From assembly GCA_041650335.1 (NCBI GenBank), contig JBAZLK010000002.1, positions 124,070 to 188,069 on the forward strand: DNA of 64,000 nt, written 5' to 3'. Shown piece by piece: positions 21,450-58,853 of this stretch (within the stretch, counting starts at the first letter, position 1; the number at the start of each line of letters is the position of its first letter). The notes below the pieces were generated by a model. The model had not been told where the DNA came from. It saw only the letters and a list, made by a program, of their open reading frames with translations, and did no database searches. A program made the position numbers and the translations under genes. This DNA comes from Patescibacteria group bacterium (lineage in GTDB: Bacteria; Patescibacteriota; Patescibacteriia; JAHIZJ01).

Positions 21450-22020
21450 TAGCGTCTCAAGAAGACCGATAAGCCGAATTCTGTCTCCGCACCACTCGCT
21501 CCGTTCCACTATCGCTCGGGTGCAGAGCAAGCCCTGTATTGAAATTGGGGGCTTGCTCTGTGCCCAAACATAGCGAAGCGAAGTGAGTGGTACAGAGGAT
21601 GATCATCTCTCTAGGCCCGAGTGTTGCCACTGGGCTCAAGCGACCTACCCGTCCGGTCGACTGACCGGACCTATTCGGTCTTGCACCTGGCAGGGTTTTT
21701 CCCGTCCGATCATTACTGACCGGACCTGTGGGCTCTTGCTTTCACCCGCCGAAGCGGGCTATCCCACGCGAAGGTGGGCCCACTCTTTTCACCCTTACTA
21801 ACAGAGGCACCAAGTTTATGCCTCCATTAGCGGTATTGTTTCTGTGACACTCTCCCTGGCTTACGCGCGCCTCAAAAGTCTATAGTGCTCTTCAGACCAC
21901 GCGTTTCCGCCTCCATTTCGAAGGTGCCAACTTACCCGGCCGCATGACCGGGTGGTGTTCGGACTTTCCTCCCTCAGGCATTTATTTGCCTGACGGCGAT
22001 CATCTGGTCTTCTCAAGACT
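21450..22020 (-). ncRNA. rnpB: RNase P RNA (bacterial type, unusually long)
   Basis: Minus sense shows the conserved P4/J regions: GGAGGAAAGTCCGAAC, AGGTCGCTTGAGCCCAGTGGCAACACTCGGGCCTAGA, GTAAGGGTGAAA, and 3' ACAGAATTCGGCTTATCGGTC. P1 pairs 5' AGTCTTGAGAAGACC with 3' GGTCTTCTTGAGAC. About 570 nt, owing to extra hairpins including two related GTCCGGTCAGT...CCGGACGGG elements. Confidence 0.8.
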
Positions 22021-36256: not shown

Positions 36257-36302
36257 GGGAGGGGGATTTAAAAAATGATTATTTCTAACCATATTATGGC
36301 AC

Positions 36303-36346
36303 GAAGAAAAAGGCCGGGGAAGGCAGTTAAAGATAATGCCTTCCCC
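36303..36346 (-). terminator. rho-independent terminator after the M23 peptidase gene
   Basis: Minus sense GGGGAAGGCAttatctttaacTGCCTTCCCC then GGCCTTTTTCTTCG. Confidence 0.65.
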
Positions 36347-36359
36347 GCGGACCCGAATC

Positions 36360-37016
36360 TTAGCAGAAAAAGAAGACAATACAGGCGTAATATTCAGAAT
36401 CACAGAGTGTTGGTATGACAGGATCTCCGTTGGCGTCGAAGTGATCGATGTTTTCGTACCCGACAAGATGAAGATGCGGACCCGAGGAGGTATTCCCAAT
36501 TCTGCCGAGGTACTGCCTGGCCGTGACATACTGTCCCTTCTGGACCGCCGTGGACTGGAGGTGCGCATAACGCAGGGCAACGTGCCGAGCAGGATCATAG
36601 ATCACTACCTGGAGTCCTTGGCCATAACCAGAACCAACTTTCACGACTGTTCCGTTGAACCCGGCGTATACCTTACGGCCAACTCCATGCTCATCCAAAG
36701 TTGTTCCGTCAATCCGGCTGATGTCGCGGGCATAGTAATCAGCCCCTTGATGCGAATTCATCGTTTGCCCGCAGGCATCGATGGTACCGCCTCCGGTCCT
36801 AATACCGCTCATTCCGCGCCAATCATCCGGATCCTCCCCTGGCCCAATCGGCGAAGCGATGCCCATATAGGCACCACGAACCATGGGCATTCCGCTCGAA
36901 AGATCGTCGCTGATCTCTTCGGGCGACGGGTTTGACACTGCCCCCTCCTTCGCGCATCCGACGAGAAACGACAGGGGGAGGGCGAGGATAAGGCAGAAAA
37001 AACTGAACCTCTTCAT
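36360..37016 (-). CDS. M23-family peptidoglycan metalloendopeptidase, lipoprotein
   Basis: Lipobox signal MKRFSFFCLILALPLSFLVGC. M23 motifs HxxxD-like region and HLHLVGYE (HxH). Confidence 0.8.
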   Translation of the reverse strand: MKRFSFFCLILALPLSFLVGCAKEGAVSNPSPEEISDDLSSGMPMVRGAYMGIASPIGPGEDPDDWRGMSGIRTGGGTIDACGQTMNSHQGADYYARDISRIDGTTLDEHGVGRKVYAGFNGTVVKVGSGYGQGLQVVIYDPARHVALRYAHLQSTAVQKGQYVTARQYLGRIGNTSSGPHLHLVGYENIDHFDANGDPVIPTLCDSEYYACIVFFFC

Positions 37017-37121
37017 TAGTTTGCCTCCATTTCAGAAATGCGGCCTCACTCCACTACAACAAGTAACGTGATTCTTCCAGCTCAGGTCTAGCTACCTCCT
37101 TTTTCTAGACCAGGGAAACGG

Positions 37122-37286
37122 GTTGTCGAAAGAACGGGCAATCATTACGGTCTCATACCCCTTTCAGATATGAAAAACCGGCCAATGCCCGTCGCGTTGG
37201 TTCTTGGTAAATAAATAAACGAGCCGTGAAAGCCCACCTCTCTTCACTTACAAAGTGCAAAATCAGTAAGACGCTGCTTATCCACC
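37122..37286 (-). repeat. conserved promoter plus leader element, copy A (upstream of M23 lipoprotein gene)
   Basis: Contains promoter module (rc GGTGGATAAGC ... GAAGAGAGGTGGGCTTTCACGGCTCG) and the ~95-nt leader module (rc CCAACGCGACGGGCATTGGCCGG...GATTGCCCGTTCTTTCGACAAC). Confidence 0.7.
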
Positions 37287-37342
37287 GATGGTCATTTTGA
37301 AGCTATCGCTGTGCTTGCATATTAATCTGTTTGCTCTTCGAA

Positions 37343-37945
37343 TTATTCGTTCACACTAATACTTTCAAGGATCGTGCTATACGTATCACGTACGTTTTCT
37401 AAGTCATCAGCGGTAAAAGTTGAGATTGATCCTGTTGGAGTCGATGGAGCGGTTTGTTCAATGTAGAAATTATACTTATCTCCTTGGTTGTCTTGAAATA
37501 TCGTGCTAATATACACACCAACACCGCTCAGCTTTTCAATACGATAACCTGGTAGTGAATGGAAGGTGATATTTTTAAGCGATGAACGATAGTCATCAGA
37601 TATTATCTGCTCCATATACGATTCTAGACTGGTGGCGTCTCGCGGTATGTTCTTGGTAAGATCATATTCCAGATCTCCAATGGCTGGATGCGTCATGATA
37701 GTAATTTGCCAGCTGGAACCACTAACTGTTTGTGGAACCATATCTGACCCTGTTGGAATACGTAATGTAACATTGTAATCTGTCAAAGTCTTCGTCTCGA
37801 AATCTGCGATGGTATAGTTATTTCTATTATTATTAATAATCGTAGCATTGTCATTTTGATTATTACGACCGTCGAGATAAAGCCACGCACCTACTGTGAT
37901 TGCAGCCATTATTACGACTGACCATAATACAACCTGTTTTTTCAT
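37343..37945 (-). CDS. hypothetical secreted protein (AT-rich)
   Basis: 200 aa with N-terminal signal anchor MKKQVVLWSVVIMAAITVGAWLY. No recognisable domain. Confidence 0.5.
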   Translation of the reverse strand: MKKQVVLWSVVIMAAITVGAWLYLDGRNNQNDNATIINNNRNNYTIADFETKTLTDYNVTLRIPTGSDMVPQTVSGSSWQITIMTHPAIGDLEYDLTKNIPRDATSLESYMEQIISDDYRSSLKNITFHSLPGYRIEKLSGVGVYISTIFQDNQGDKYNFYIEQTAPSTPTGSISTFTADDLENVRDTYSTILESISVNE

Positions 37946-38004
37946 TGTTTTTATAATAATAGTAATTTGTTAGAATAAGGGGAAGTTGGATTCCTCCCCC
38001 TAGT

Positions 38005-38625
38005 TTACCACACATTGTACTGTGAGAGGATATGACCCCACATCGGCAGAACGTGACGAGTAATCCTGTTGGATTCGATGAAATTTGAGTCGATCACATC
38101 CAGTCTTGTCGGATGTCCGACCCCATCCCTTTCCATAACCTGGAAAACGATGGCGGTATGAGGGATTCGTCCACCGGCATTTGATCGTTGAATGACCTGT
38201 CCGGGCCTCACCACGTTGATGCTTCGTGTCGCATAGGCATACCCGCTGGGCAGCGTGACTATCCCACCCGTCGCCCGTGAAACGATGGTGCTCCCAAACG
38301 ACTTACACTGCCCCCCGATGCCGACGCCAAGCCCACGATAATTCCAATCCCCCGCGAACCAGCAACCATCGTTACAGATAATCTCGTCCGAGGCACCCCA
38401 GTCGTTGTTGTTGTAGTGATCTCTCGAGAGAGCGTAGCAGATCTCACGATAGACTGCATACTCCCACTGCTCCGGAAGCTGTGATTGTGGTATTGGGAAA
38501 ATGCCGTTGGGCGGCCATTCCTCCTGTGACTCAGGTGATAACACACCTCCCCTCTTTCCGCAGCCAAGCAATAACCCTCCAGCAATTACCGGCAAGACCT
38601 TCAGAAAATCCCTGCGTGTGTTCAT
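38005..38625 (-). CDS. CHAP-domain-like peptidoglycan amidase/peptidase, Tat-type lipoprotein
   Basis: Start at MNTRRDFLKVLPVIAGGLLLGCG (RR motif plus lipobox). GGAGG SD. Cys/His pair GGQCKSFGSTIV ... PHTAIVFQV resembles the CHAP catalytic dyad. Confidence 0.5.
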   Translation of the reverse strand: MNTRRDFLKVLPVIAGGLLLGCGKRGGVLSPESQEEWPPNGIFPIPQSQLPEQWEYAVYREICYALSRDHYNNNDWGASDEIICNDGCWFAGDWNYRGLGVGIGGQCKSFGSTIVSRATGGIVTLPSGYAYATRSINVVRPGQVIQRSNAGGRIPHTAIVFQVMERDGVGHPTRLDVIDSNFIESNRITRHVLPMWGHILSQYNVW

Positions 38626-38650
38626 CCTCCTCTCCTTTTCTATTGGTAGT

Positions 38651-38752
38651 GTTGTCGAAAGAACGGGCAATCATTACGGTCTCATACCCCTTTCAGATAT
38701 GAAAAACCGGCCAATGCCCGTCGCGTTGGATCTCTTGGTAAAAAAATAAACG
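38651..38752 (-). repeat. conserved leader element, copy B (leader module only; about 25 nt upstream of the CHAP gene start)
   Basis: Near-identical to copies A and C across about 95 nt (gttgtcgaaagaacgggcaatcattacggtctcatacccctttcagatatgaaaaaccggccaatgcccgtcgcgttggatctcttggtaaaaaaataaacga). Confidence 0.7.
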
Positions 38753-38915
38753 AACTGACTTCAGTATAATTTATGGCTCTCGATTATCGACTGATACTAA
38801 TATATGGTTTCTATTGCAGTAATTGCCGTAGAAACCGCGGTCCGATCGCCTTGCTAGCTACCCCATCCGATTGGCCCAGTCTTTTTAGCGGACACACAAC
38901 CACTTCTTCGCTATA

Positions 38916-39557
38916 TTACTTAAGGCTCACCGATTCAGCAATCGTCATCAGCGTTTCTTCAGAAACGTCGTTTGAGATTAGTACCAGTATTTCGTTCGAG
39001 GTAATAAAATACAGGTATTGCCCAACCGCACCGCCAACCCCATTTCCCTGGTGGGTGAGTACAATTGTGTTTAGGCCGACGACGCGCGTTTCGTTTCTGA
39101 CAATAGTTTCACCAGGCATGTTCCGCTCAATCCACGGCGCCAGCCGACCCCATTGGTCAGATGAAATATTTTCATCGTTGGTATAAACTGCCAGGTGCAT
39201 GACGTCGTCCGCAAAGGTATTGAATCCATCGGGCGTATTACGGTTATGCCCCTCACTGGTGTTTTTATTTGTTCGAGAAAAACGAACCAATAAACTCTCT
39301 GTTTTAATTGGCGGCACGACCTGATAAGAAAACTCACTCGGCACGACAAGCGAAAAACCATAGCGAGCACTAATATACGCAGTCGTCTGTCCGGCGCTGT
39401 TTAACGGCCTAAATGCCGGATCGGCTTGCGTTTGACTGAGGCTAATTTGATCGGATGGTTCTGTTTTTGCCCGGCTGACCGCGAAAAGCCAGGCGCCAAG
39501 CACCACTGATAAAACCAGAATGACGGCAAAGGAAATGATGGTTGTTGGTTGTTTCAT
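38916..39557 (-). CDS. hypothetical signal-anchored protein
   Basis: 213 aa, N-terminal TM MKQPTTIISFAVILVLSVVLGAWLFAV. Confidence 0.5.
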   Translation of the reverse strand: MKQPTTIISFAVILVLSVVLGAWLFAVSRAKTEPSDQISLSQTQADPAFRPLNSAGQTTAYISARYGFSLVVPSEFSYQVVPPIKTESLLVRFSRTNKNTSEGHNRNTPDGFNTFADDVMHLAVYTNDENISSDQWGRLAPWIERNMPGETIVRNETRVVGLNTIVLTHQGNGVGGAVGQYLYFITSNEILVLISNDVSEETLMTIAESVSLK

Positions 39558-39639
39558 GGGTTGTATGCTTAATTATAGTTTATTTTATATCGTATCGTCA
39601 GAAAAGGGAAGTCGTTTTCACGGCTTCCAGGTAATCTCA

Positions 39640-40341
39640 CTATCGCCTGACTGGTACATATATCTTCCCCTGCGTAGCCCAGGAAGCCTCAAAGTCACTG
39701 ACCGAAATCTGTCTGTAACAGCCGTACGAGCTTCCCGGATCGTGTAGAATGACGTTTCCGTTCCAGCCAACTGCGAGAACCCAGTGTGCCGTTCCGCCGG
39801 AACTGACGATGCGGCCTTTTTTGATCATGACGCCGCAAATCACGGGATGTCCGTGCGCCACCTCGTTTATCACGTCATTGGCGCGATTGCCATAGTAGAC
39901 GGTGTAATGAAGTCCGTGGAATTCAGTCAGAAGGATGCCCAGGGCGTTTCGTCCGGAGAAGTTAGTGTACCATCCGTTGGGACTGTCGAAACGCGAATCA
40001 TCGAGGCGATCGGCTAAGAACTGATTTTCCGCGGTGATGACCCATGGTTCGACGTAGCCATTGTTAAAGTAGCCGCCCAGCATCACCCCGCAGGCCTGAC
40101 CGCAGTTCTTCGTGTTGTACTGATCGCCGGGCGGGAACTGGCGGAGCCAACGCATGTTGAGATGGAAACAGTAGCCAGGGTAGTCTGCCAGCAAACCGAC
40201 AATCGGTGCCAGTGAGTCCGGCAGCAACTGCTCTCCCGAGTGATCAACGGGTTCGGTTGATACGGCCTGCTCCTGCCCGCACCCCATAATTAACGTAAGG
40301 GGGAGAGCGAGAATAAGGCAGAAAAAACCGGAGCGTTTCAT
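39640..40341 (-). CDS. C39-like (papain-fold) cysteine peptidase domain lipoprotein
   Basis: Start at MKRSGFFCLILALPLTLIMGC (paralogous to the M23 signal peptide). Cys region NCGQACGVMLGGY and His region AHWVLAVGW resemble the Peptidase_C39-like catalytic dyad. Confidence 0.5.
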   Translation of the reverse strand: MKRSGFFCLILALPLTLIMGCGQEQAVSTEPVDHSGEQLLPDSLAPIVGLLADYPGYCFHLNMRWLRQFPPGDQYNTKNCGQACGVMLGGYFNNGYVEPWVITAENQFLADRLDDSRFDSPNGWYTNFSGRNALGILLTEFHGLHYTVYYGNRANDVINEVAHGHPVICGVMIKKGRIVSSGGTAHWVLAVGWNGNVILHDPGSSYGCYRQISVSDFEASWATQGKIYVPVRR

Positions 40342-40462
40342 TGGATTTACCTCCCTGTCGTACCGAACGACAGTGGTTGAGATGATGAGCAATAACACAC
40401 CCTGAAACCGAGACTCAACGCCTCCTTTTCCTCCTTTCTTAATAGAGACAGTAGCGATAGGT

Positions 40463-40638
40463 ATTGTCAAAAGAACGGGCAATCATTACGGTCTCATACC
40501 CCTTTCGGATATGCAAAACCGGCCAATGCCCGTCGCGTTGGATCTCTTGGTAAAAAAATAAACGAGCCGTGAAAGCCCGTCTTCTTTCTGCCTTTAGTAT
40601 GCGCCATCAATAATACCTGTCAATGTAGCTTATCCACC
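40463..40638 (-). repeat. conserved promoter plus leader element, copy C (upstream of C39-like lipoprotein gene)
   Basis: Has both modules. Promoter module rc GGTGGATAAgctacaTTGACA-17 nt-ATACTA then AGAAAGAAGACGGGCTTTCACGGCTCG; leader module as in copies A and B. Confidence 0.7.
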
Positions 40639-40662
40639 GACGGCTTTATGACGCGACGGCTG

Positions 40663-40698
40663 ATAAAAAAACGGACCACATGGTCCGTTTTATTTATT
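40663..40698. terminator. bidirectional rho-independent terminator
   Basis: AAAAAAACGGACCACATGGTCCGTTTTATTTATT. Confidence 0.7.
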
Positions 40699-40709
40699 AC
40701 TGCCTCGAC

Positions 40710-41336
40710 TTATTCGAGTTTTACGCTGTCAAAAATATCGCTCACCGTCTGACTCGCTTTGAGATAGGTAGCCGAGTCGGGATTTGGGTCAAATATTTCG
40801 GCTCGGATCTGCCAGATACCTGTTCCGGTCTGGATATAATAGGTGTGATATGAATCCGTGATCGGATTGCCCTGGAACCAAATCCATTGGCGGATGCCGA
40901 TATTCCCGTCGCGGTCATCCCGGGTACGGACTTTTTCGTTCGCTGTTTCGGATTTCGCATTGATAAAATCAGGCAATGAAAGATTTTCGGCGTTTGGCTC
41001 TTTGCTAATCGCCAGTCTGATAAGCGATTCAGTCACGTCTTGCTTCGAGAGCGGATCAGTGATGGTCGCCTGTTCAGTCGACTCAAGTTCGCCCACCGTC
41101 GTCGAGCCGTTTTCAGCCGAAATCGAAAGAAGCGTCAGATTTTTTGGGTACATGAAGGTAATTCCCTGCGCTTGGAACGTTTCGGTCAGCGGCGGCACTT
41201 CCGTATTTCTGTTTGTTTTCACAGAGCACATCGTGGTGGCGAAGCTCGGCACTGATTGCAAGCCATACATCACCGCCGCACCCCCGGTGAGCGCCGCCAG
41301 TAGAAAAATGACAAAGTACCAAAAATTTTTACGCAT
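40710..41336 (-). CDS. hypothetical secreted protein
   Basis: 208 aa with signal anchor MRKNFWYFVIFLLAALTGGAAVMYG. Confidence 0.5.
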   Translation of the reverse strand: MRKNFWYFVIFLLAALTGGAAVMYGLQSVPSFATTMCSVKTNRNTEVPPLTETFQAQGITFMYPKNLTLLSISAENGSTTVGELESTEQATITDPLSKQDVTESLIRLAISKEPNAENLSLPDFINAKSETANEKVRTRDDRDGNIGIRQWIWFQGNPITDSYHTYYIQTGTGIWQIRAEIFDPNPDSATYLKASQTVSDIFDSVKLE

Positions 41337-41466
41337 ACATAGCTATTTTAATGCCAAATGGTCAATATTCCCATATATTTGCGCTCCTGACGAACGGCAT
41401 GGGCGGCTTTTCGTGCTTGATAATAGTATACTACACTTATAATTTTTTTCATATGATATTTTCCCA

Positions 41467-41499
41467 GCAATAAAACGGGCACGAACTTGCGTTCGCGCC
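41467..41499 (-). terminator. rho-independent terminator after the 913-aa gene
   Basis: Minus sense GGGCGCGAACGCAAGTTCGTGCCC then GTTTTATTG. Confidence 0.55.
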
Positions 41500-41528
41500 C
41501 AGAGGACGTTTGTGCGATGTTTGTTTTC

Positions 41529-44270
41529 CTAACGGACCACGATCAGCCGGCGCTCGGATTGTTCGATGCCTGACCGGACGCGGCAGAAGTAGATGCCGCT
41601 CGCTACCCGCTGACCCTGATCGTCGCGGCCGTTCCAGATAATGGCCTGGGGTCCGGACGGCAGCTCGCCAGTGAACAGCGTCTGCACCCGCCGGCCGGAT
41701 ACGTCGTAGATCTCGACAGCCACCGGTTTCGCCTGGTTAAGGGTGAAGGAGATAGTCGTCGAGGGGTTGAGGGGATTCGGCGTGGCGGATAGCGTCTTGG
41801 CCATGCTGGCCGACGCCGACTGCCGCCACTGGACGCTGATGTCCCTCAGCCAGACTGAACCAGCGTCCTGGCCGAGGTAGAAGATGAGCTTCGCGGCCGG
41901 GTCGGTGACTTCCGGCCAGAACGGCAGGACGATCGGCTGATCGGCCGAGGCCAGAGTGAGATTGACGCCTTGCCACAGCGGCTTGGCACCGTTCGAACAC
42001 TCGATCACAGCCGTGATCGCGCACGGCGGATTAGCCGCGCCGGTAAAAACGAGCTCGCACGCGCTTCCGGCCTGCGTGTAAACCCAGTCCTGCGTGAGAG
42101 AAAGCTCGTGCCACTGCCGGGCATGGTCCACGCTCACTCTGAGAGTGTGATCGTCCTGGACCACCGGCACCAGCCAGTCGAGACCGGCCGGCTTGGTGAA
42201 TTGCCAGCAGTCAAGGCCGCGGGTGAAGCTGCCGTTGCTGATGAAGCTGCCCGGATCATCCTCGCCCGTGCAGGTTGGAGGTGGCGGGGGTGGTGGAGGC
42301 GGCGGACTGTCGTCAGACACGAGCCGGATATTGCGGATCCGGAACATGCTTCCGCCGGTCTCGCCGAACGCCCAGGTCAGCTTCGCCGTTGAAGCAGTCC
42401 TGGTAACGGTGATGGGAAAACGGTGCTCTTCCCAGCCGCCCGGCGACTGGCGATAATCCTGCCACAAACCGCAGTTGACGTACTGGCCGTTCACCTGCAC
42501 GGTCAGACCGAGCATAGTGTGGACGGTCCGCACGCTCTGCTGTTCATAGCTCAGGATCAGCTTCTCGCCGGCCGTGATCCGGGGCAGGGTTTGTGACAGC
42601 TGGACGCTCCAGATGTCGGCATTCCCGTGCATGACGAATTCGGCCATGGGCGTCGCCAGATTAATGTCGCAGTGCTCGGTCGGCCAGATCGGCGTTTCCC
42701 AGCAGTCGAGACAGCTCTCGAAGCTTCCGTTTGCGATAAGGTTGTCAGGAGAACGATAGCACTCGTCTGCCCCAGCCTTGGCCATCTTGTTCTCGTCCAC
42801 GCACCGGCTCAAGTCGATCTCGGAAACGGAATGTCCGTCCGTCTCTAAACGCCAGTGCTTGCCGCTTCGATGTTCGTAGAAGTCCTGGGTAATTTTACCG
42901 TCCATCTCGAACTGATCGGTGGTCGGATACCCAAACCTGTCTACGTCGCCGTGGCTTTCGAAATACGCCAGGATATTCCTGTCGTAGACGCAGTGGGCTT
43001 CAGCCGTACAGGAGTTATGGATAGCGCCGGCCGGATCATAGAAGATGATTGCCTTGGACCCGTCCGGACGCCTGAAGTCCTGAACGTCATAGCCGTCCCA
43101 GTTGTGGACCCGAGCCGTGCCGCTTCCGCCTGGAATAGCATGACCCAGATTCTGGGAGCCGCCGTTCCGGTTGTAGCACTCGGCAAAGAGATAGCTTGAT
43201 TCTGGGTGCCAGCCATTTTCGTAGTAGCCGGGGGCGCAGTTGGGATACCAGGCGAAATGCGGCAGACCATTGGCCCAGAGCATCACACCGTCCGTGCACT
43301 CCTGGATAGCGGAGATGCCGTCAAGCCGCGTAACGGCGTTCTCTTTGTAGTTTTGCTTGTAGTAACTTCGGAGATTCGATGGTACGTTGCTCTCGTCCCG
43401 GATCGGCATCTTGGCCGGGCATCTCGGGCCGCCACGCTGCGTCCAGAAAGTCCATAGGCCTGAATGCAAGACAATCGCGGCTCTGGCTCCTCCCAGCGCA
43501 TCGTAAACGATGGCGTTATCGCCGAAGAACCCGCCGTTGAAGTGCCAGATAGCGCAATTCTTCGGCATGCCCCGAGCGTCGTAGAGATCATTCGGATCCC
43601 AGGCGTAGTACCAGGGATGGCTGGAATTAGCCCGACGGGCTGCGTCCAAATCCCACATCTGATACTCAGGGTAACCAATCATGGCCGAGCCGTAGCGACT
43701 GTAAGCCTGGTCAAACAGGGCGGTGTTGCGGGAAACAACAATACTGCCATAGATAGGATTTCCACCGTCCGAAAAGCTTGATGAGATCGACTGGCCGTTT
43801 GGGTTGTCGCCTTGTTGTCGCTGATAATGGAGATGCGCGTTGTATCTTCCATCGGCATCACCCATCAAGCCGATTACCTGGCCAGCTTTTACCTCTTCAC
43901 CAGGCTTGACGAACAACTTCTCTAGATGTCCATTCAAACCCTCATCTTCTTCCGCGCCCTTGTAGCGAATAACCGCGCAGTTACCCCAATCGTCTTGGCC
44001 AGGTCGGTAATCCTGGGCATAAACAACCACTCCATCTTCAGTTGCGACGATGGGATAACCAATGTTTCGCTCCCTATAAAGTCCATTAACACAGAAATCC
44101 CACGCGAACTCAAGCTTGCTGCCTCGAAGATGGGTTGGGGTATCAGCGTTTCCTTGCCCACAAACCAATACAGTGCCACCGATGACGGGGAGATTCTGTT
44201 CAGCTACTGACGCGGATGAATACACAAAACCAAGCACCAAAAACAACCCCAGGATCGATGCTGACTTCAT
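41529..44270 (-). CDS. large secreted multidomain protein: N-terminal M23 peptidase domain, central beta-rich region, poly-Pro linker, C-terminal Por/FlgD-Ig-like sorting-type tail
   Basis: Signal peptide MKSASILGLFLVLGFVYSSASVA. M23 motifs (GTVLVCGQGN..., HLHYQ). An 11xPro run. The last ~85 aa, SATPNPLNPSTTISFTLNQAKPVAVEIYDVSGRRVQTLFTGELPSGPQAIIWNGRDDQGQRVASGIYFCRVRSG..., match the T9SS/FlgD-like C-terminal domain pattern. Confidence 0.7.
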   Translation of the reverse strand: MKSASILGLFLVLGFVYSSASVAEQNLPVIGGTVLVCGQGNADTPTHLRGSKLEFAWDFCVNGLYRERNIGYPIVATEDGVVVYAQDYRPGQDDWGNCAVIRYKGAEEDEGLNGHLEKLFVKPGEEVKAGQVIGLMGDADGRYNAHLHYQRQQGDNPNGQSISSSFSDGGNPIYGSIVVSRNTALFDQAYSRYGSAMIGYPEYQMWDLDAARRANSSHPWYYAWDPNDLYDARGMPKNCAIWHFNGGFFGDNAIVYDALGGARAAIVLHSGLWTFWTQRGGPRCPAKMPIRDESNVPSNLRSYYKQNYKENAVTRLDGISAIQECTDGVMLWANGLPHFAWYPNCAPGYYENGWHPESSYLFAECYNRNGGSQNLGHAIPGGSGTARVHNWDGYDVQDFRRPDGSKAIIFYDPAGAIHNSCTAEAHCVYDRNILAYFESHGDVDRFGYPTTDQFEMDGKITQDFYEHRSGKHWRLETDGHSVSEIDLSRCVDENKMAKAGADECYRSPDNLIANGSFESCLDCWETPIWPTEHCDINLATPMAEFVMHGNADIWSVQLSQTLPRITAGEKLILSYEQQSVRTVHTMLGLTVQVNGQYVNCGLWQDYRQSPGGWEEHRFPITVTRTASTAKLTWAFGETGGSMFRIRNIRLVSDDSPPPPPPPPPPTCTGEDDPGSFISNGSFTRGLDCWQFTKPAGLDWLVPVVQDDHTLRVSVDHARQWHELSLTQDWVYTQAGSACELVFTGAANPPCAITAVIECSNGAKPLWQGVNLTLASADQPIVLPFWPEVTDPAAKLIFYLGQDAGSVWLRDISVQWRQSASASMAKTLSATPNPLNPSTTISFTLNQAKPVAVEIYDVSGRRVQTLFTGELPSGPQAIIWNGRDDQGQRVASGIYFCRVRSGIEQSERRLIVVR

Positions 44271-44405: not shown

Positions 44406-45563
44406 TTACTCAGCTTTCAGGCTAAACATAATAGTATTAAACACATCGAGCATATCGTAATCAAACCAGGCCCCGAGTGAAATATTTATCAGATTTTCAT
44501 TCAGCTGGATATATGCTTCACGATGTATAGCATTTCCGGCATATTCATATTGGTATGCCTTCCCGCTTAGCGGTTGAGGAAGGTCGATTAGCTGATCATT
44601 AATACCCTTATCTCTTATCCATTTTTCCAGATCATTTGGTTTCGTTTTTTCCCATGAAATCGCAAATATGGGAGTTTCTGTCTCTCTATCAATATATTCT
44701 TTTTTTGTGATGTATAACGTATTTCCCTCCTGGTTTCTAATACCGTAATCAGAGGGATAAAGGAAAAAAAAGCCAAGCTCGCTATTCGTATACTTCTGCC
44801 AATTTGCCGTATCCAGTTTTGTACTCAGATCAAAGGCCATGTTGTTTGTAAATTCCAGACTTCGAGCGATCTGGTCGGCGGTATTGAGCAGGTTTTCATC
44901 GCCAGACAACACGACCGCTGAAAGTTCTAACACCTGTTGATTGTGTTTTATATAGTAGTTTGTTATTTTACCATCTAGCCATTCTGTATCGACTTGAACT
45001 TTCGGTGTTTTTCCGGTCGTGATTTTTTCGATTATGGCATCGTTACCGTCAATTGCCGTTTGCTCCGTTGTGACATCAAAATATATATCTCTGCGATTAA
45101 CTTTTAAATATTCGTCAAACCACCCTGTTAAACTTAAACTTGATATCTTGTAGACATGAACATCAACATTAATCTCACCCTTTTGAGGATGGTATACGTC
45201 TAGATTTTCAGAATAATTTTGAATGTATGCCGTTTGAATTCCTTGTGTTACTAATTGCACTTCTTCATCATTATCAATTTGGACAAGTTGCCACTCTTTC
45301 GGAAATTTCAATCTATAACTATATTTATCGTTTGTGTATATGTTCCAACCCGTCACCGGATCAATCGTAATGTTAACGTTGGTGTTCTGATTTGTTGTAT
45401 TTGTGTTTGCATTACCATTCACATTGCTATTGATATTCTGATTTGAATTAGTATTGATTTTTTTGTTAAATCCCCACCACACTGCGCCTCCAGCCAAGAT
45501 GATAACAATAACAATCAAGACAATGGCGATTGCAGAGACTCCTTTGTTGTTAAATTTCTTCAT
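44406..45563 (-). CDS. hypothetical membrane-anchored protein with Asn-rich low-complexity region (AT-rich)
   Basis: 385 aa. TM MKKFNNKGVSAIAIVLIVIVIILAGGAVWW, then NTNSNQNINSNVNGNANTNTTNQNTN. Confidence 0.5.
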   Translation of the reverse strand: MKKFNNKGVSAIAIVLIVIVIILAGGAVWWGFNKKINTNSNQNINSNVNGNANTNTTNQNTNVNITIDPVTGWNIYTNDKYSYRLKFPKEWQLVQIDNDEEVQLVTQGIQTAYIQNYSENLDVYHPQKGEINVDVHVYKISSLSLTGWFDEYLKVNRRDIYFDVTTEQTAIDGNDAIIEKITTGKTPKVQVDTEWLDGKITNYYIKHNQQVLELSAVVLSGDENLLNTADQIARSLEFTNNMAFDLSTKLDTANWQKYTNSELGFFFLYPSDYGIRNQEGNTLYITKKEYIDRETETPIFAISWEKTKPNDLEKWIRDKGINDQLIDLPQPLSGKAYQYEYAGNAIHREAYIQLNENLINISLGAWFDYDMLDVFNTIMFSLKAE

Positions 45564-45800: not shown

Positions 45801-48572
45801 TTATTCTACCGGCAGAGTAAATATAAACGTGCTCCCCTTGCCCAAACCTTCGCTCTCGACCCAGATCTGTCCGCCGTGGGCGTCGACGATGCGCTTGGCA
45901 ATATAGAGACCGAGACCGGACCCGTCCGGCTGGACTTGGGCGATGCCCTCCCCGCGGACAAACTTCGTGAACAGCCGCTTGGCGTCATCCGGCGGGATAC
46001 CGCGGCCCGTGTCCTTCACGGAAACGCTGATATTGCCGTTGATCTTCTGAACCGAAACCGTGACGCTGCCCTGCGGTGTGTATTTTATCGCGTTATCGAC
46101 GAGATTCAAAATGACGTCTTTCAATTTATCCGAATCAACCATCAGGGCGGGCAGTTTTTTGGCCGGCTTTTTGTATTCCAGCTTGAGGCCTTTTTCCTCA
46201 GCCACCTTGATGATTTCGATCAATTCGGTCTGGATCAGTTCTTCGATTTGCGCCGGTTTCTTATCGAGTACGAATTTACCCGCCTCGATCTTCGTAATAT
46301 TGAGGAATAAATTTACCATCCGGACCATGCGCTTGCTCGCATCCAGCACTTGTTTCAAAATATTCAGTTTTTCTTCGTCAATCTTTCCGAAATCGCCGTC
46401 CACCAGCATGGACAGCCAGCCCTGGATGCCGGTCAGCGGGGTGCGCAATTGGTGCGAGGCGATGGAGATAAACTCGTTCTTCGCCTCGTCGAGCTGTTTC
46501 AAATGATCGTTCGCCTTGGCCAGCTCGGTATTCGTCAGCCGTAGCTCCTCGACCAACTTCAGATTCCTAGTGACAATACCCATCTGATCGGCCAGCGACT
46601 CCATCATCTGGATCTCGTCCTCAGATACTTCTTTCTTGGATTTTTGGATGACAAACACGATCGATCCGATGATCTCCTTTTCCGAGAAAATCGGCGCGGC
46701 CACGATCGTCTTCGCGCCCACGAGCTTTTGCATAGCATAGCAGATCGGCTTTGGAATCGGCGGGGACAGGAAATCAGATAGCGATTCGCTGATCTGGATA
46801 TTTCCCGTGCGGATTGCCTCCGTCGCCAGATCCTTATCCGCCATCGTGCCGCTGTATTGTTCGAGCTGTTTGGGCAGGAGTTTGACCGCGGCTTGAGTGA
46901 TTTTTGTCATCGTGATGGCCACCGGATGCGTTTTTTCACCTTCTCCGCGTAAAATAATAACCCCCCCGATGTACCCCAGCTCATTGGCGATGCCGTCAAC
47001 GATCGCCTGGGTAACCTTCTTGAAGTCGAGCGACCGAGTGATGATATTGCCGATACTCTGGAGAGCGTTCAAGTAGACATTCCGGTTCTTTAGCTCCACG
47101 TTGGCCATCTGAAGATCGGCCGTGGCGTGCTCGACCTCAACCTTCAGCTTTTCACTGAATGATTTTACCTCGTCATAGAGCCGCGACTTCTCGATCGCCG
47201 ACCCCATGAGCGGGCTCAAGACTTCGAGCAGTTTCAGGTCGTTTCCGCTATAGACATCGCCGGATCGCTTCTGGCCCAGCACATAGAGGCCAGTCACCTC
47301 GCCCTCGAGCATGATCGGCGCGATCACTGCCGCGCCCGTGGCTTTTACCTCAGCTAGTGATTTCTCGAGCTGTTTGCGCTCGCGTTCATCGGCCGTATCG
47401 GAGATTTTTCGCTCAAGCTCTTCGAGGACAACCACTTTTTCGGTTTTTTGAACGTATTTGGCGACCGAGCCATTCGCATCGACGCGCGTATTATTACCGT
47501 TACCGTTGTTATTTCTACGCTTGCTGTATGACTGTTTGTTTTTCGTGAGCAATAATATGTCCGCATATTTGATTTTCAGAATACTGGCGAGCTTCCACTC
47601 CACTGACGACAGCAGATCATCGAGCTCGATCTTCACACTGACCATTTCGGTCAGTATCTGGGTGGCTTCGGTATAGTCCACCTCGCCTTTGAAGAATATT
47701 GCATCGGTAATTTTTGCCAGTAAACGCTTCAACGGATCAAAACCGAAAACTATTACAAGCGAGACAAGGATAGTCGCGAGAAACCCCGACCCGCCAAGCT
47801 CTTGGATAAAAAGACCGGTCAGAAACGTAGCTGAAGTGAAAGCAAACGTAGTAAAAAGAATGAGAAAGAAATAGATAATGGAGCGAGATATAACCACCCT
47901 AATATCAAACAATCTGTGTTTGACGATTGCATAGGCGGTAATAATCGCATAAATGAAAACAAAATAATTACCAACAGGATAAATATTTAATCTAAAATCT
48001 AGTAAAAAATTTGTAGATCCACCAACAAATCCAATCAATGACGCGACAAACATGTATAATAACTGTTGTGATCTGAGACCAAGAGCTTTTTTATATTCAA
48101 TATATATATTTCTGATACTCCAAAAAACGACTGCAACAAAATATATAAGAAATGTTGGGTATATGCTTCCAGTTTTTACCGGCCAATAGCCAAAATATGT
48201 CCTGGGACTCACTTGCTCGATAAACAATTTAGAAAAAACGAGAATCGAAAATATTACCGAAATGACATACAAAAAAATAGTAATATACAAGTATTTCTTT
48301 TTTGTCCTGCCGGTTAATACAACGCTATAACGAAAAAATACGGCGGGTAATAACGCAGTACCAATATACAACAACCTTTGCCAAATCAATGCCTGATCAG
48401 AGTTATTAGCAATGACGGTACCGAATAAACCTATAGTCCATATTGAAGTTACACAACTGACAAGAAACCATATTTGATTTAATTCTTTCTTCCTATTTCC
48501 AAATAAAACAAACAGTCCTAGTGCAACAGTTAATATCGCGGTTAAAAGACAGGTATACGCAAAAGTGTTCAT
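45801..48572 (-). CDS. sensor histidine kinase with N-terminal 7TM sensor module and GAF domains
   Basis: 923 aa. The first ~300 aa are multi-TM. H-box FISIASHQLRTPLTGIQGWLSML, N/G boxes (NLVDNAIKYT, DTGRGI, GSGLGLYI). Confidence 0.8.
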   Translation of the reverse strand: MNTFAYTCLLTAILTVALGLFVLFGNRKKELNQIWFLVSCVTSIWTIGLFGTVIANNSDQALIWQRLLYIGTALLPAVFFRYSVVLTGRTKKKYLYITIFLYVISVIFSILVFSKLFIEQVSPRTYFGYWPVKTGSIYPTFLIYFVAVVFWSIRNIYIEYKKALGLRSQQLLYMFVASLIGFVGGSTNFLLDFRLNIYPVGNYFVFIYAIITAYAIVKHRLFDIRVVISRSIIYFFLILFTTFAFTSATFLTGLFIQELGGSGFLATILVSLVIVFGFDPLKRLLAKITDAIFFKGEVDYTEATQILTEMVSVKIELDDLLSSVEWKLASILKIKYADILLLTKNKQSYSKRRNNNGNGNNTRVDANGSVAKYVQKTEKVVVLEELERKISDTADERERKQLEKSLAEVKATGAAVIAPIMLEGEVTGLYVLGQKRSGDVYSGNDLKLLEVLSPLMGSAIEKSRLYDEVKSFSEKLKVEVEHATADLQMANVELKNRNVYLNALQSIGNIITRSLDFKKVTQAIVDGIANELGYIGGVIILRGEGEKTHPVAITMTKITQAAVKLLPKQLEQYSGTMADKDLATEAIRTGNIQISESLSDFLSPPIPKPICYAMQKLVGAKTIVAAPIFSEKEIIGSIVFVIQKSKKEVSEDEIQMMESLADQMGIVTRNLKLVEELRLTNTELAKANDHLKQLDEAKNEFISIASHQLRTPLTGIQGWLSMLVDGDFGKIDEEKLNILKQVLDASKRMVRMVNLFLNITKIEAGKFVLDKKPAQIEELIQTELIEIIKVAEEKGLKLEYKKPAKKLPALMVDSDKLKDVILNLVDNAIKYTPQGSVTVSVQKINGNISVSVKDTGRGIPPDDAKRLFTKFVRGEGIAQVQPDGSGLGLYIAKRIVDAHGGQIWVESEGLGKGSTFIFTLPVE

Positions 48573-50640: not shown

Positions 50641-51324
50641 CTACTTCTTCAATACTATCACTGCAATCATAACCGCCACGACACCGGCAAATAGCGGAGA
50701 ATATGCCATGTTAATTGATAAATCAAAAAGGGGGAAGATGCGATCCATAACCACGCCAACTAAACCGCTAATACCAATTATTATAGTAACGGCGGTTACC
50801 TGTTTTTTTAGTTGCACCGAGACAATGTTTATTTTTTTTATTAACAAATATAGTGATAACAACAAATATATCAACGATACTATGAAGAGCGCCCAGAACG
50901 CATTACCTGGTTTAATATCGATAAATCCTTCATTTACATTAACATCATTAATGAAGCTTGGCTGTAATATTATTGCTGGCAAGACAATAAATATTGATCC
51001 AAATATTACCAATCGGCGAACAAGAGGATCCATATTTGTCGGCAACGGATAATACATTGCCAATGCAAGGAGACTTACGAAACTGGCCGTACCAGAGTAG
51101 AATGCTGCCCTGGCAATAATCAACTTTGACATTTCTGTATTCGAAGTCATGAGAAGTCCAACAAAGAAGGACATTAGTGAAAAACCAAAAAGCATAGCGC
51201 AGAGCGCATAGATAGACTGAGTTTTTTGATATCGAAAATAAATATACAATGCGAGAATCAATTCTAATATGGAAAGAGACCAAAGAATTATTGTATTTGC
51301 TTCAGTAATGATACTCATTTTCAT
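50641..51324 (-). CDS. hypothetical polytopic membrane protein
   Basis: 227 aa, about 6-7 TM, AT-rich. Confidence 0.45.
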   Translation of the reverse strand: MKMSIITEANTIILWSLSILELILALYIYFRYQKTQSIYALCAMLFGFSLMSFFVGLLMTSNTEMSKLIIARAAFYSGTASFVSLLALAMYYPLPTNMDPLVRRLVIFGSIFIVLPAIILQPSFINDVNVNEGFIDIKPGNAFWALFIVSLIYLLLSLYLLIKKINIVSVQLKKQVTAVTIIIGISGLVGVVMDRIFPLFDLSINMAYSPLFAGVVAVMIAVIVLKK

Positions 51325-52048: not shown

Positions 52049-53509
52049 TTAAACTTTTACCCCAATCCGCTCAAGCGCGTTTTTATAAAGTATCACATTT
52101 TCTAATGCATAGGCCGCCTCCTGCGCGACATTCTGTAAATATCTGACGTCTTCTGTTGTATACGGTTCGTTCGATGTCTTACTGCCAAGAAGAACAAGCG
52201 CAGAAAGTCCGTGGCGCGTAGCTAGCGGCAATACCGCTTCGGTTTTCAGATTGTCCATTTCCTTTTCGCACTGCTCGAGCCGTCGCTGTTCAAGACCGAA
52301 TGCTTCCTGAAATAGATACGGGATTTCTTCACGGATTAGCATTTTCATGGAATCTTTCAAAAAACTCGGTAATGCTTCTTCTGCGCGAATACTGATATTG
52401 CCGTCTAATGAGTCATATGTTCCCTGGCGCTTGTTTACTATTAAACAAGTTATTCGATTCACGTTCACAACCTTTAATATTTCACCCGATAGCTCTCGGC
52501 AAAACTCTTCCAAGTCCACTAAACCGATCACGCGCTGCCGAACATCTTCAATCATCTGTTTCATATTCGGCTGGCGCGAAAAAAACAAACGGTTAATTAT
52601 TCGTATCAACCATTTACGAAATGGGATAAAGGTTACGGCAATAACAAGCACTGAAGCAAAATTCACAAATGCACGGTTGAATGCGTACTTCTGGACTAAA
52701 TAATCATTCGCAAGCAGAACTAAATAACCATAGACGATTAGTAATAATATAAGAACCAGCGTATGGGCCGCGCCCTTTTTCATTACTATCCTTACGTCCA
52801 TAAAACGATACCGTAGTATGGCATACGCAATAAGCCACGTAAACACAGCTAAACCAATCAAACTTAGAGGATATAATTTATTGTAACCAAGCGATGGCAG
52901 TAGTAAATTAAATAGTAAAGAAAATGTCGCAACGCAAATAAACGCAAAGATAATATAACGTAGTTGAATCTTTGTAACTTTTGATGTAGTTGATTTGAAA
53001 ATATTGAATAATTTTTTCAATCCAAAAAATGCATATATTAATAAATAAATAATATATGCAGGATACAATTGACTAATACTCGGACGATAACCGTAATTTT
53101 CAATATATTCGACATCAGAGATGTTATACCTTGTCGGAACTATTGCTACAATGGCTATGGATGGTAAAAAAAGTAGCAAAATTTGCCACCACGAAAATGG
53201 CGTCTTTTTTTTATAGAGAGTATACGCAAAAAGTAAAAATAATGTCGGGGAAAACGCCGGTCCGAGAAAAGTCAGTCTCGCCCATAAAAGAGCGGCTTCT
53301 TTGCCACCAACAAGATCGGACATAATGTTCGCAAACAACCACACAGAGAGACTTAGCACTAACGATCCAAAGAAGATCAGATTTGGTCTTTTTTTGCTCT
53401 TAATAAATACGGTAATGGATATTACCAGGAGCGCAAAAAAACAAATTACTGAGGTAACTTCAATAATTTGGATCTCTAGACTATGATATATTCCAGGATT
53501 AATCTCCAT
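52049..53509 (-). CDS. membrane sensor with N-terminal 7TM module and C-terminal GAF-like domain (no kinase domain)
   Basis: The first ~300 aa are multi-TM and resemble the N-terminus of the 45801..48572 kinase. The C-terminus is GAF-like (ALVLLGSKTSNEPYTTEDVRYLQNVAQEAAYALENVILY). Confidence 0.5.
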   Translation of the reverse strand: MEINPGIYHSLEIQIIEVTSVICFFALLVISITVFIKSKKRPNLIFFGSLVLSLSVWLFANIMSDLVGGKEAALLWARLTFLGPAFSPTLFLLFAYTLYKKKTPFSWWQILLLFLPSIAIVAIVPTRYNISDVEYIENYGYRPSISQLYPAYIIYLLIYAFFGLKKLFNIFKSTTSKVTKIQLRYIIFAFICVATFSLLFNLLLPSLGYNKLYPLSLIGLAVFTWLIAYAILRYRFMDVRIVMKKGAAHTLVLILLLIVYGYLVLLANDYLVQKYAFNRAFVNFASVLVIAVTFIPFRKWLIRIINRLFFSRQPNMKQMIEDVRQRVIGLVDLEEFCRELSGEILKVVNVNRITCLIVNKRQGTYDSLDGNISIRAEEALPSFLKDSMKMLIREEIPYLFQEAFGLEQRRLEQCEKEMDNLKTEAVLPLATRHGLSALVLLGSKTSNEPYTTEDVRYLQNVAQEAAYALENVILYKNALERIGVKV

Positions 53510-53617: not shown

Positions 53618-54154
53618 TTATTGTACTTTTTCAATCTCATTGGTTAATTTGGTCTTCGCATATTCCGTGCCAGCCTCGTCGCGAAAGATATTACCCGGCA
53701 GTGCAGTGAAAATCGCCTGCATCGTTGAAAGCGGGGTGTATGCCTGTAAATCATCGCGATAATACAGATAGAGCAGGCGCTCATCGCCGGGTTTGAGGTT
53801 CTGTCCGCCTTGGGTGTCGGCGATGACGACGAGATTTCCATTTTCACCCCCAAGAATTGACACAATAAGTTTTTTCGACGCAGTTCCCTTCCAGACTTCC
53901 TGCGGCTCCACCTGCCAATCCGTGTAAATCATTTTCTCTCCCGTATCTTTCTCGAAGACTTCCCGGACATTGCTCGAGATGAATCGGCCGGTAAGAACAA
54001 TCTGTGATTCTTTTGCCAGATCGGCTGGCGTAAGTGTCACCTCTAACTTGCTAACACTTGTGGTAGGTTTATCGCCGCGCAGTGCGATTATCGCAATGAG
54101 ACTTCCGATAATAAACACGCCGGCCAAACCAATGATGATTGTTCGCTTTTTCAT
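53618..54154 (-). CDS. hypothetical secreted protein
   Basis: 178 aa, signal anchor MKKRTIIIGLAGVFIIGSLIAIIAL. Confidence 0.45.
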   Translation of the reverse strand: MKKRTIIIGLAGVFIIGSLIAIIALRGDKPTTSVSKLEVTLTPADLAKESQIVLTGRFISSNVREVFEKDTGEKMIYTDWQVEPQEVWKGTASKKLIVSILGGENGNLVVIADTQGGQNLKPGDERLLYLYYRDDLQAYTPLSTMQAIFTALPGNIFRDEAGTEYAKTKLTNEIEKVQ

Positions 54155-54172
54155 ATTTTTTTACATAAAGTA

Positions 54173-54736
54173 TTAGATGCCATATATTGCCCTGATGCCG
54201 GAAATATCATCCGAATGCAACGTGCGCTTATATGTCTCACCGGGTGCCCCGCTTCCATACATTGTTTTCCAATAATCTCCGCCGCTGTACAGATCATTGA
54301 GCATAAGCCAGTGTCCAAATTCATGCGCCATGACATTTTCAACGTCATATTTGTTCGGGTCCCCGTTCACGTCCCAAGAAAAGCGCGAGTTTATGTATGT
54401 ATCACGATCAGTGATGCGATTATTGTTCCATCCTTCTCGCACATACGTTATGGCAAGTGCATGTGGGTCAGACAAATACTGGAGACGCACTTCATGCCCT
54501 TGCGAGCCAGCAATAAACCGATACTTTGCGCCCGCCTGATTCCACGATGACATAGCGTGGGATATGGCCGGTACCCAGGCGGGCAGGATACTACTGTGCA
54601 TGTAGACCGATACCCGGGTCGGATTGCCATAGTCCCAGTGATGGCCGGAATTGTAGTAGGCTTGGGCGTTAGGCGCACTAATGCCGGCCATAGCCGCAAC
54701 AAAGAACGCGACTAATGCTAAAAACTTTTTTCTCAT
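54173..54736 (-). CDS. secreted zinc metalloprotease (HExxH)
   Basis: Start at MRKKFLALVAFFVAAMAGISAPNAQA (signal peptide). Motif VMAHEFGHWLMLND. Confidence 0.55.
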   Translation of the reverse strand: MRKKFLALVAFFVAAMAGISAPNAQAYYNSGHHWDYGNPTRVSVYMHSSILPAWVPAISHAMSSWNQAGAKYRFIAGSQGHEVRLQYLSDPHALAITYVREGWNNNRITDRDTYINSRFSWDVNGDPNKYDVENVMAHEFGHWLMLNDLYSGGDYWKTMYGSGAPGETYKRTLHSDDISGIRAIYGI

Positions 54737-54806
54737 CTTGTACCCTTTTCCACCCGTCATATTAATTATAGCTATGTCAATGGATAATTGGAAATAAAGC
54801 AAAAAA

Positions 54807-54882
54807 CGAGCCCGAAAGCCCGTCTCTTTCTAACACTAGAATACTCTCTACGTATATTATGTCAACTACCTGTTATCCACCC
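54807..54882 (-). repeat. conserved promoter element, copy D (upstream of secreted metalloprotease gene)
   Basis: rc GGGTGGATAAcaggtagTTGACA-16 nt-TATTCT-agtgtt-AGAAAGAGACGGGCTTTCGGGCTCG. Confidence 0.65.
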
Positions 54883-58836: not shown

Positions 58837-58853
58837 CTACCGCGTTGACTCGA

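Follow-up and report, generated by a model that had tools for sequence, protein, structure and literature searches.

In Borrelia burgdorferi, the lipoprotein genes of the erp group (ospE/ospF/elp, with their upstream homology box) share a promoter/operator, a leader peptide and the first residues of the mature protein; the rest of each open reading frame (ORF) is of independent origin, and the genes have been reshuffled by recombination and are co-expressed from the common promoter (PMC10016077). Here we describe a similarly organized set of genes in a 64,000-nucleotide (nt) stretch of contig JBAZLK010000002.1 (assembly GCA_041650335.1, positions 124,070 to 188,069 of the forward strand; ‘the window’ below) from a bacterium of the Candidate Phyla Radiation (CPR; Patescibacteria), in which tandem lipoprotein genes for different cell-wall-type hydrolases share segments of their 5′ ends. 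The likeness to erp is one of organization, a shared 5′ end on otherwise unrelated lipoprotein genes; we draw it by description, as an analogy, and claim neither membership of that group nor any sequence relationship to it. The Borrelia genes, for surface proteins that bind the host, lie at allelic loci of cp32 prophage plasmids, whereas those described here stand in tandem arrays on the chromosome of a CPR bacterium, encode enzymes of three hydrolase folds, are each followed by a conserved partner gene and have leaders with terminator-like hairpins and an orphan Shine–Dalgarno (SD) sequence; these features are what is new in an arrangement of a known kind.

Two other described systems come close. 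Putative mobile promoters, as surveyed by Matus-Garcia, Nijveen and van Passel in 2012, are families of 50–100-nt upstream sequences that are at least 80% identical and precede non-homologous genes in one genome (PMC3488235). The 105-nt repeat of our locus (three copies, 86–96% identical) falls within that operational definition, as does a promoter/hairpin module described below, but the survey covered non-coding DNA only, whereas here the shared tract enters the coding region (through the signal peptide, and in a relative for as many as 55 codons) and is limited to neighbouring units. Polymorphic toxin and effector–immunity arrays combine a constant N-terminal part with a variable C-terminal enzyme and an adjacent immunity gene. 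Our arrays are alike in having a constant 5′/N-terminal part, variable enzymes that plausibly attack cell walls and a co-inherited small gene after each enzyme; they differ in that the constant part is a Sec/Tat lipoprotein signal plus untranslated region (UTR) rather than a secretion-system targeting domain.

The array genes of the window all lie on the minus strand, in a neighbourhood of chromosomal housekeeping genes, as tandem, co-oriented units, each made up of a 5′ regulatory region, a gene for an exported cell-wall-type hydrolase and a gene for a membrane-anchored partner (Table 1). A 913-amino-acid (913-aa) M23 protein comes first, followed by an anchored 208-aa protein, a terminator, and then unit 3 (C39_2-like gene and anchored 213-aa protein), unit 2 (206-aa CHAP-like gene and anchored 200-aa protein) and unit 1 (M23 gene and anchored 245-aa protein). 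As to the window’s own lineage, the nearest named relatives of the M23 protein come from metagenome-assembled genomes (MAGs) of Candidatus Kerfeldbacteria, in the Parcubacteria group, and proteins of the contig are labelled ‘Patescibacteria group bacterium’ at NCBI; we found no account of such an arrangement in literature mentioning Kerfeldbacteria. Our reading is that intragenomic recombination has probably swapped 5′ ends among the tandem hydrolase units, with a shared type of promoter, leader and export signal as the result. Cassette copies were sought within the window and on the same contig just past its right end, a region reached through a paralogue.

Table 1 Features of the hydrolase array and of related modules in the window (window coordinates)
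Feature	Position	Strand	Basis
M23 partner, 245 aa	35519..36256	-	gene call
Peptidase_M23 lipoprotein gene, 218 aa; type A signal codons 37016..36954	36360..37016	-	Pfam
Orphan SD AAAAGGAGG, about −85 from start codon	37095..37103	-	sequence scan
105-nt repeat copy 1; long leader hairpin 37193..37129, box TTCTTTCGACAAC 37134..37122	37120..37224	-	repeat alignment
Degenerate promoter copy before M23 unit (GTGGATAA 37285..37278) and weakened short hairpin 37239..37209	37209..37291	-	scans
Partner downstream of CHAP-like gene, 200 aa; no Pfam family	37343..37945	-	ORF, Pfam
Divergent CHAP-like lipoprotein gene, 206 aa; twin-arginine-like signal and lipobox MNTRRDFLKVLPVIAGGLLLGC (type B)	38005..38625	-	family profile
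105-nt repeat copy 2; long hairpin 38722..38658	38649..38753	-	repeat alignment
Separate promoter-like site, CHAP unit, TCGATA-16-TATACT	38755..38790	-	promoter scan, alignment
C39_2-like partner, 213 aa	38916..39557	-	paralogue comparison
Peptidase_C39_2-like (papain-fold) lipoprotein gene, 233 aa; type A signal codons 40341..40279	39640..40341	-	Pfam, AF2, Foldseek
Orphan SD AAAAGGAGG, about −86; second SD-like AAAGGAGG at about −95	40421..40429	-	sequence scan
105-nt repeat copy 3; long hairpin 40534..40470	40461..40565	-	repeat alignment
Short GC-rich hairpin with U run (AGACGGGCUUUCACGGCUCGUUUAUUUUUUU), terminator-like, about 14 nt past −10 hexamer	40552..40582	-	terminator scan, fold
Promoter-like site, C39_2 unit: GTGGATAA box 40637..40630, TTGACA 40623..40618, 16 nt, CATACT 40601..40596	40596..40643	-	promoter scan 10/12
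Intrinsic terminator after 208-aa gene	40691..40668	-	terminator scan
Membrane-anchored 208-aa protein downstream of 913-aa M23 protein	40710..41336	-	ORF
913-aa secreted protein, N-terminal M23 and C-terminal FlgD_ig/Por_Secre_tail; array head	41529..44270	-	Pfam
Promoter and 5′ hairpin module (54880..54801) before M10-like unit	53618..54880	-	scans, alignment
Promoter and hairpin module (59246..59138) before Cys-rich ORF/radical SAM unit	57517..59246	-	scans, fold

The M23 gene (ATG at 37016) and the C39_2-like gene (ATG at 40341) begin with the signal peptides MKRFSFFCLILALPLSFLVGC and MKRSGFFCLILALPLTLIMGC, hereafter type A, which agree at 15/21 residues, their codons at 48/63 nt, and have a run of ten residues, FFCLILALPL, in common. 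Both fit the pattern by which we recognized lipoprotein signals (a positive N-region, a hydrophobic core and a lipobox, [LVI][ASTVI][GAS]C, at about residues 15–25) and would be substrates of Lgt and LspA, lipidation being predicted here from a pattern scan only; the same kind of scan found lipobox proteins in the window only for the M23, C39_2-like and 206-aa (38625) genes. The mature domains are unrelated, their best local alignment being 14/38 with a score of 41. As a background for the signals we used the 38 lipoprotein signals of M23 and C39_2 homologues, whose 703 pairs have a median identity of 0.29 and a 99th percentile of 0.67; at 0.71, the window pair ranked fourth and was the sole pair across enzyme families in the top ten. 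Set against three other lipoprotein signals of the same contig, the type A pair matched at just 6–8/22 residues.

The similarity continues upstream. A 105-nt repeat precedes the M23, CHAP-like and C39_2-like genes in copies that are 86–96% identical, and exact 28-mers and 23-mers taken from it occur three times each against zero expected; copy 3 carries two substitutions in the apical stem region of its hairpin, one of which converts a U·G pair to C–G. The CHAP-like gene has this element without a type A signal peptide, and the SD that follows copy 2 is its working SD, while units 1 and 3 additionally share about 75 nt farther upstream and a segment comprising the SD and the signal peptide. 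Along units 1 and 3, identity is 88–96% at −225 to −125, at noise level at −75 to −25 and 76–84% at −25 to +50. The parts of the cassette are, in order, a promoter-like site, a terminator-like 5′ hairpin, the 105-nt element, a diverged spacer with an orphan SD, and the SD with the signal peptide, and on these alignments the window cassette is a mosaic of separately exchanged segments and not one unit.

A first-pass annotation of this DNA had reported the near-identical signals (with a plus-strand nucleotide string from their codons, which is present as quoted), the unrelated mature domains and the shared upstream element, all of which were borne out, the last also before a third gene. The outcome that it had named as refuting, signals no more alike than those of the genome’s unrelated lipoproteins, was not what we saw. 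Its description of the roughly 100-nt UTR spacers as unrelated holds for their noise-level identity, but both spacers retain the orphan SD of Table 1. It had also proposed a single regulatory-plus-export cassette: the shared 5′ ends stand, but not the single unit, since the window version is a mosaic and its promoter/hairpin part also precedes other genes.

Database searches gave the element no name. With Rfam 15, run over 36300..41500 with gathering and E-value thresholds, no family was found for the element or the hairpins, the only matches being two chance-level small RNA hits on terminator-like sequence (E = 0.24 and 7.9). An exact 22-mer of the long (105-nt) element had no match in GTDB species genomes, and an exact 30-mer from the signal-peptide codons had none in JGI metagenomes; a protein search with just the signal peptide yielded no candidates either. 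Two candidate readings were rejected. An upstream ORF within the long element (MIARSFDN...) and the short ORFs that follow the orphan SD lack either a proper SD or suitable start spacing and are not conserved past the repeat. Reading the alignments for signs of a miniature inverted-repeat transposable element revealed neither terminal inverted repeats nor target duplications (no formal search was made); homologues of the long element in arrays L023 and L014 occupy the same place in homologous leaders.

In five further arrays (from three other genomes and from the window’s contig past the window), non-homologous neighbouring genes share 108–386 nt of 5′ sequence, non-coding DNA included, at 83–99% identity. 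An M23 gene, a 216-aa gene of no assigned family and a CHAP-like 239-aa gene in L004 (GCA_016294925.1) share 290 nt at 96–99%, made up of about 200 nt of upstream sequence and the signal MKGNTWLGPP...SGC (22–26/26 residues identical), and elsewhere in that genome, on a second contig, a further M23 gene has 386 nt at 98% in common with a different gene. The 328 nt common to an M23 and a CHAP-like gene in L007 are 95% identical, and the two proteins agree at each of their first 55 residues, 21/21 in the signal and 34 more. The tracts cover 168 nt at 83% in L017 (M23 and a 214-aa gene of no assigned family) and 108 nt at 93% in L023, just past the right end of the window (a second M23 gene and a C39_2 paralogue). 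Breakpoints lie at codon 4 (L023), about codon 10 (L017), about codons 25–30 (L004) and codon 55 (L007), and these differences fit variable-length conversion tracts better than a fixed module.

The enzymes are related along other lines than their 5′ ends. M23 orthologues of different genomes are 55–79% identical in their mature parts and agree at 8–10 of 21–26 residues in their signals, the exception being L003 (14/21), whose M23 protein is the closest relative of ours (71% identical) and carries the FFCLILALPL signal. CHAP-like domains are homologous between genomes and their signals match at 8–9 of 22–26 residues, and the C39_2 gene of the window and its same-contig paralogue agree at 127/207 mature and 8/22 signal residues. 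On these comparisons cassettes group by genome and array and enzymes by family, the incongruence that the first-pass annotation had predicted; together with the five arrays above, this supports its proposal that recombination shuffles 5′ ends onto different hydrolases. FFCLILALPL was absent from the signals read among the 43 C39_2 homologues recovered, the same-contig paralogue included. Its presence in the closest M23 relative and not in the C39_2 homologues makes it likely that the M23-type 5′ end moved onto the C39_2 gene.

The leaders share a candidate promoter architecture. The window has five copies of the box GTGGATAA (1.9 expected), four of them at promoter-like sites; the boxes at 37285..37278, 40637..40630, 54880..54873 and 59246..59239 stand 6–7 nt upstream of the −35 hexamer. 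This box is the reverse complement of TTATCCAC, which we take to be the DnaA-box core, and several copies have short GCCGTC(G) repeats or a GCCGTCGCGACGGC palindrome just upstream. Four window sites have this architecture, as do L003, L004, L014 and L023, with the same spacing. On folding, the purine run ahead of each hairpin pairs with the U run behind it (−13 to −42 kcal/mol, z −3 to −6.8), except in the decayed copy before the M23 gene. The short hairpin before the C39_2-like gene, in which the purine run again pairs with the U run, folds at −12.9 kcal/mol (z −3.2) and the weakened copy before M23 at only −6.9 kcal/mol (z −0.4); the terminator scan flags both (40582..40560 and 37239..37217), each being a GC-rich stem–loop with a U run right behind it. 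The long hairpins have merely UUCUUU as a tail, and in the CHAP unit the repeat starts within the would-be 3′ arm of the short hairpin. Nor is the long hairpin restricted to this genome: at the homologous position L023 has a short hairpin (7-bp stem, tetraloop, U7) and then a UUCUUUSGACAAY box, as in the window; the M23 leader of L014 runs hairpin 1, hairpin 2, orphan SD, and the leader of L090 starts with two hairpins alike.

The orphan SD at 37103..37095 has no start codon 4–12 nt downstream and that at 40429..40421 only a poorly spaced TTG. Sequences of this kind recall the STAB-SD of Gram-positive bacteria (cry3A), an SD-like sequence far upstream of the start codon that stabilizes the mRNA without initiating translation (PMC4113751). 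The likeness lies in an orphan AAAGGAGG, which seven leaders have between −73 and −98, in most cases with no start codon that could be used, and which has equivalents in five other genomes, and in hairpins at the predicted 5′ end; the difference is that the hairpins here have U runs, so that they also resemble intrinsic terminators or attenuators.

The promoter and hairpin module is also found away from the array. One copy (54880..54801) precedes a secreted Peptidase_M10-like gene (54736..54173) and a membrane-anchored 178-aa gene (54154..53618), a unit found with the same leader in L090 too; another (59246..59138) precedes a 54-aa Cys-rich ORF (59018..58854) and a radical SAM gene (58785..57517). 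This ORF ends in CCDNCCDDYICSSD and resembles the precursor of a ribosomally synthesized and post-translationally modified peptide, for which the radical SAM gene could supply the maturase. When metagenomes were scanned with the 5′ motif of the hairpin, the matches were mostly chance, with 63 of 80 lacking any context feature, and the full promoter and hairpin context was found in 7/80, all 7 on contigs of this lineage.

Several points weigh against recombination of 5′ ends, or against what we build on it. It is deduced from sequence patterns, with no event directly observed. The same codon is used at 8/14 identical residues of the window signal pair against 5.1 expected (P = 0.08); the nucleotide identity of the pair thus largely follows from that of the amino acids, the divergence at synonymous sites means that the event was not recent, and the case within the window rests on amino-acid identity, on the flanking non-coding similarity and on the other genomes. 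The hairpin stems are nearly invariant, one change of U·G to C–G and two changes to wobble pairs being all the covariation. A terminator right after a promoter and a 5′ stabilizer are different functions, between which we cannot tell. For the anchored partners we found no known family, bar faint PsbP_2-like hints. The module also fronts non-hydrolase genes (the Cys-rich ORF with the radical SAM gene, and an HD-domain gene), so part of the upstream similarity could be kept by selection on a common regulatory signal.

An account without any exchange takes this last point further: one regulon and one export route would keep promoter, leader and signal alike, or make them converge, by selection. 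The module precedes four or more units in the window, recurs in several genomes and keeps its spacing, its stems are sequence-invariant and the synonymous identity of the window signals is not significant, all as selection would have it. What it leaves unexplained are identities of 96–100% over 250–386 nt that include spacer and synonymous sites (L004, L007, L065/L090), the 34 identical mature residues past the lipobox in L007, and the very different signals on orthologous enzymes of sister genomes; we consider it improbable.

The cassettes form direct repeats of 100–390 nt that flank whole units, and short-read or Logan contigs of the same or related populations start or end inside them: L002 in the element (position 1), L024 in the hairpin (position 8) and L008 just upstream of M23 (position 1). 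Such repeats could serve programmed variation, as sites for frequent switching, deletion or duplication of hydrolase–partner units within a population; mycoplasmas offer an analogue in the phase or antigenic variation of their lipoproteins. Fragments of a tyrosine-recombinase-like gene also adjoin the array in L017 (three ORF fragments at 3292..4105, apparently a disrupted integrase, directly upstream of the cassette genes). Around the window array, however, there is no recombinase among the called genes, no invertible segment and no long inverted repeats flanking units (a search for such repeats, made with invertible-segment phase variation in mind, found none); the window cassettes have diverged to 76–96%, unlike the products of frequent ongoing exchange, and repeats of this kind break assemblies in any case. 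We regard programmed variation as a distinctly remote prospect, and take the breaks as a sign that the cassette repeats fragment short-read assemblies of these loci. As separate observations, the M23 gene of L017 is split by a frameshift, L014 contains a perfect 393-nt tandem duplication (3846-4238 and 4299-4691), and identical 64-nt stretches resembling tRNA 3′ halves lie just upstream of the array in L004 (9454-9517 and 9550-9613).

Repeats long enough to confuse short-read assemblers, at which Logan contigs do break, raise the question of chimeric joins, with several genes falsely fused to one 5′ region. Independent assemblies have the same junctions (ENA contig k141_2554607 of 368,560 nt, the NCBI MAG and Logan contigs), the copies differ by substitutions and have different flanks, and the pattern recurs in unrelated MAGs of other studies, so that we find an assembly artefact barely credible.

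Under recombination among units, gene conversion or 5′-end replacement between direct repeats would have copied promoter, leader and signal segments from unit to unit, repeatedly. The C39_2 gene would have received a type A 5′ end that belonged originally to the M23 lineage, and the 105-nt leader segment would have spread to all three units. As a consequence, different hydrolases would be transcribed from the same kind of promoter (the GTGGATAA box, −35 and −10), would have in common a leader in which an orphan SD comes after one or two GC-rich hairpins with U runs, and would be exported and lipid-anchored alike through the lipobox Cys. The leader may be a shared device for post-initiation control or for stability, with the hairpins as attenuators or protective 5′ structures and the orphan SD as a STAB-SD-like block to a 5′-exonuclease. 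Co-regulation, the functions of the hairpins and SD, and an action of the partners on the hydrolases are what we infer from this arrangement.

The hydrolases differ in fold. The M23 gene product matches PF01551 with 55.4 bits (gathering cutoff 28.7), and its His152, His181 and His183 are invariant across 18 aligned homologues. For the C39_2-like protein, the PF13529 match falls just below the cutoff (23.4 bits against 24; E = 9.5e-5) and spans profile positions 3-142 of 143; most homologues have a precomputed PF13529 match, and Cys80 and His186 are invariant in 33 of them. Its AlphaFold2 (AF2) model, with a predicted local distance difference test (pLDDT) score of 86.9, found as best Foldseek match 3erv, a C39-like peptidase (E = 2e-6), with a papain-like toxin (9l5u, a toxin/immunity pair), the pseudomurein endoisopeptidase PeiR and staphopain with its inhibitor among the other neighbours. 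On this model the protein is of the papain-like cysteine peptidase fold (clan CA, C39-like).

PDB sequence searches made with single proteins gave nothing of use. The 206-aa protein had on its own no Pfam match to CHAP (PF05257) and a pLDDT of 33 in a single-sequence AF2 model. Within its family (33 representatives), 14/34 aligned members match CHAP, the best with E = 2.3e-6; the alignment has an invariant Cys107 and a nearly invariant His156, and the family profile gave weak PDB matches to solved CHAP domains (E = 0.01–0.05). Armadillo-repeat matches of the same profile covered a short stretch only (positions 56-85) and were taken as spurious. The signals of the CHAP-like gene (38625..38560) and of the second M23 gene (L023 8505..8570) have a twin-arginine consensus, NTRRDFLK and NTRREFLW, together with a lipobox, which suggests lipoproteins dependent on twin-arginine translocation (Tat) in a CPR bacterium.

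The anchored partners are co-inherited with their enzymes. That of the M23 gene is kept with M23 in L003 (z 61), is tied to the partners of other genomes through a protein of L005 and has more distant links at z 9 to 20; the paralogue of the C39_2 partner sits after the paralogous C39_2 gene in L023 (z 66), and the 208-aa protein behind the 913-aa M23 protein resembles (z 14) the partner that goes with the second M23 gene of L023. Such co-inheritance for M23, C39_2 and the second M23 type (z 9–66), as in effector–immunity systems, suggests a specific functional pairing in which the partner would be an inhibitor or immunity protein, or a regulator or activator, of its hydrolase. Among themselves the partners show faint similarity only (z 4–6). 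Together with the tandem, co-oriented and similarly organized units, this could recall duplication of a whole ancestral unit followed by divergence of all but the 5′ end; but enzymes of different folds (an M23 metallopeptidase, a papain-like C39_2 and a CHAP-like protein), each with orthologues that carry other signals in other genomes, make an origin from one ancestral gene very improbable.

A 385-aa protein encoded upstream of the array (44406..45563) has a PsbP_2-like domain at E = 7e-6, just under the cutoff, and a faint PsbP_2 hint comes from the partner encoded after the paralogous C39_2 gene. A PsbP-like fold may be common to the anchored partners.

The CPR bacteria are uncultured and mostly episymbiotic, and their gene regulation and their handling of cell walls, their own or a host’s, are largely unknown. 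The hydrolases could equally be the cell’s own wall-remodelling enzymes with membrane regulators. A bolder idea, which we think doubtful, is that of a CPR-specific attack toolkit: surface-tethered peptidoglycan hydrolases of several folds with cognate, membrane-anchored immunity or control partners under one recombination-homogenized cassette, with the conserved GACGGGC hairpin or hairpins as attenuator. If true, an undescribed attenuator would switch on the whole set together, for example upon host contact, and the arrays would be a polymorphic-effector system in which a cassette for regulation and lipoprotein export takes the place of a secretion-system domain as the constant region. With recombination of 5′ ends as the preferred reading, the arrays would be a clear example, seen in several genomes, of promoter, UTR and signal peptide evolving in concert on unrelated enzymes; the candidate promoter architecture and leader RNA signals could predict co-regulated genes in the lineage, and the hydrolase–partner pairs are directly testable for lysis and protection.

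Three further observations concern the surroundings of the array. The FlgD_ig/Por_Secre_tail end of the 913-aa M23 protein, of the type IX sorting style, seems unexpected in a Patescibacteria genome. Three genes for HisKA_7TM proteins adjoin the arrays (45801..48572, 50641..51324 and 52049..53509), one of them encoding a 923-aa full GAF-HisKA-HATPase kinase, and the arrays of L004 and L005 are likewise flanked by HisKA_7TM genes; a regulatory link is possible. The RNase P RNA of the window (class A, 176 bits; 21454..22015, minus strand) has several large insertions and is 562 nt long against a model of 367 positions.

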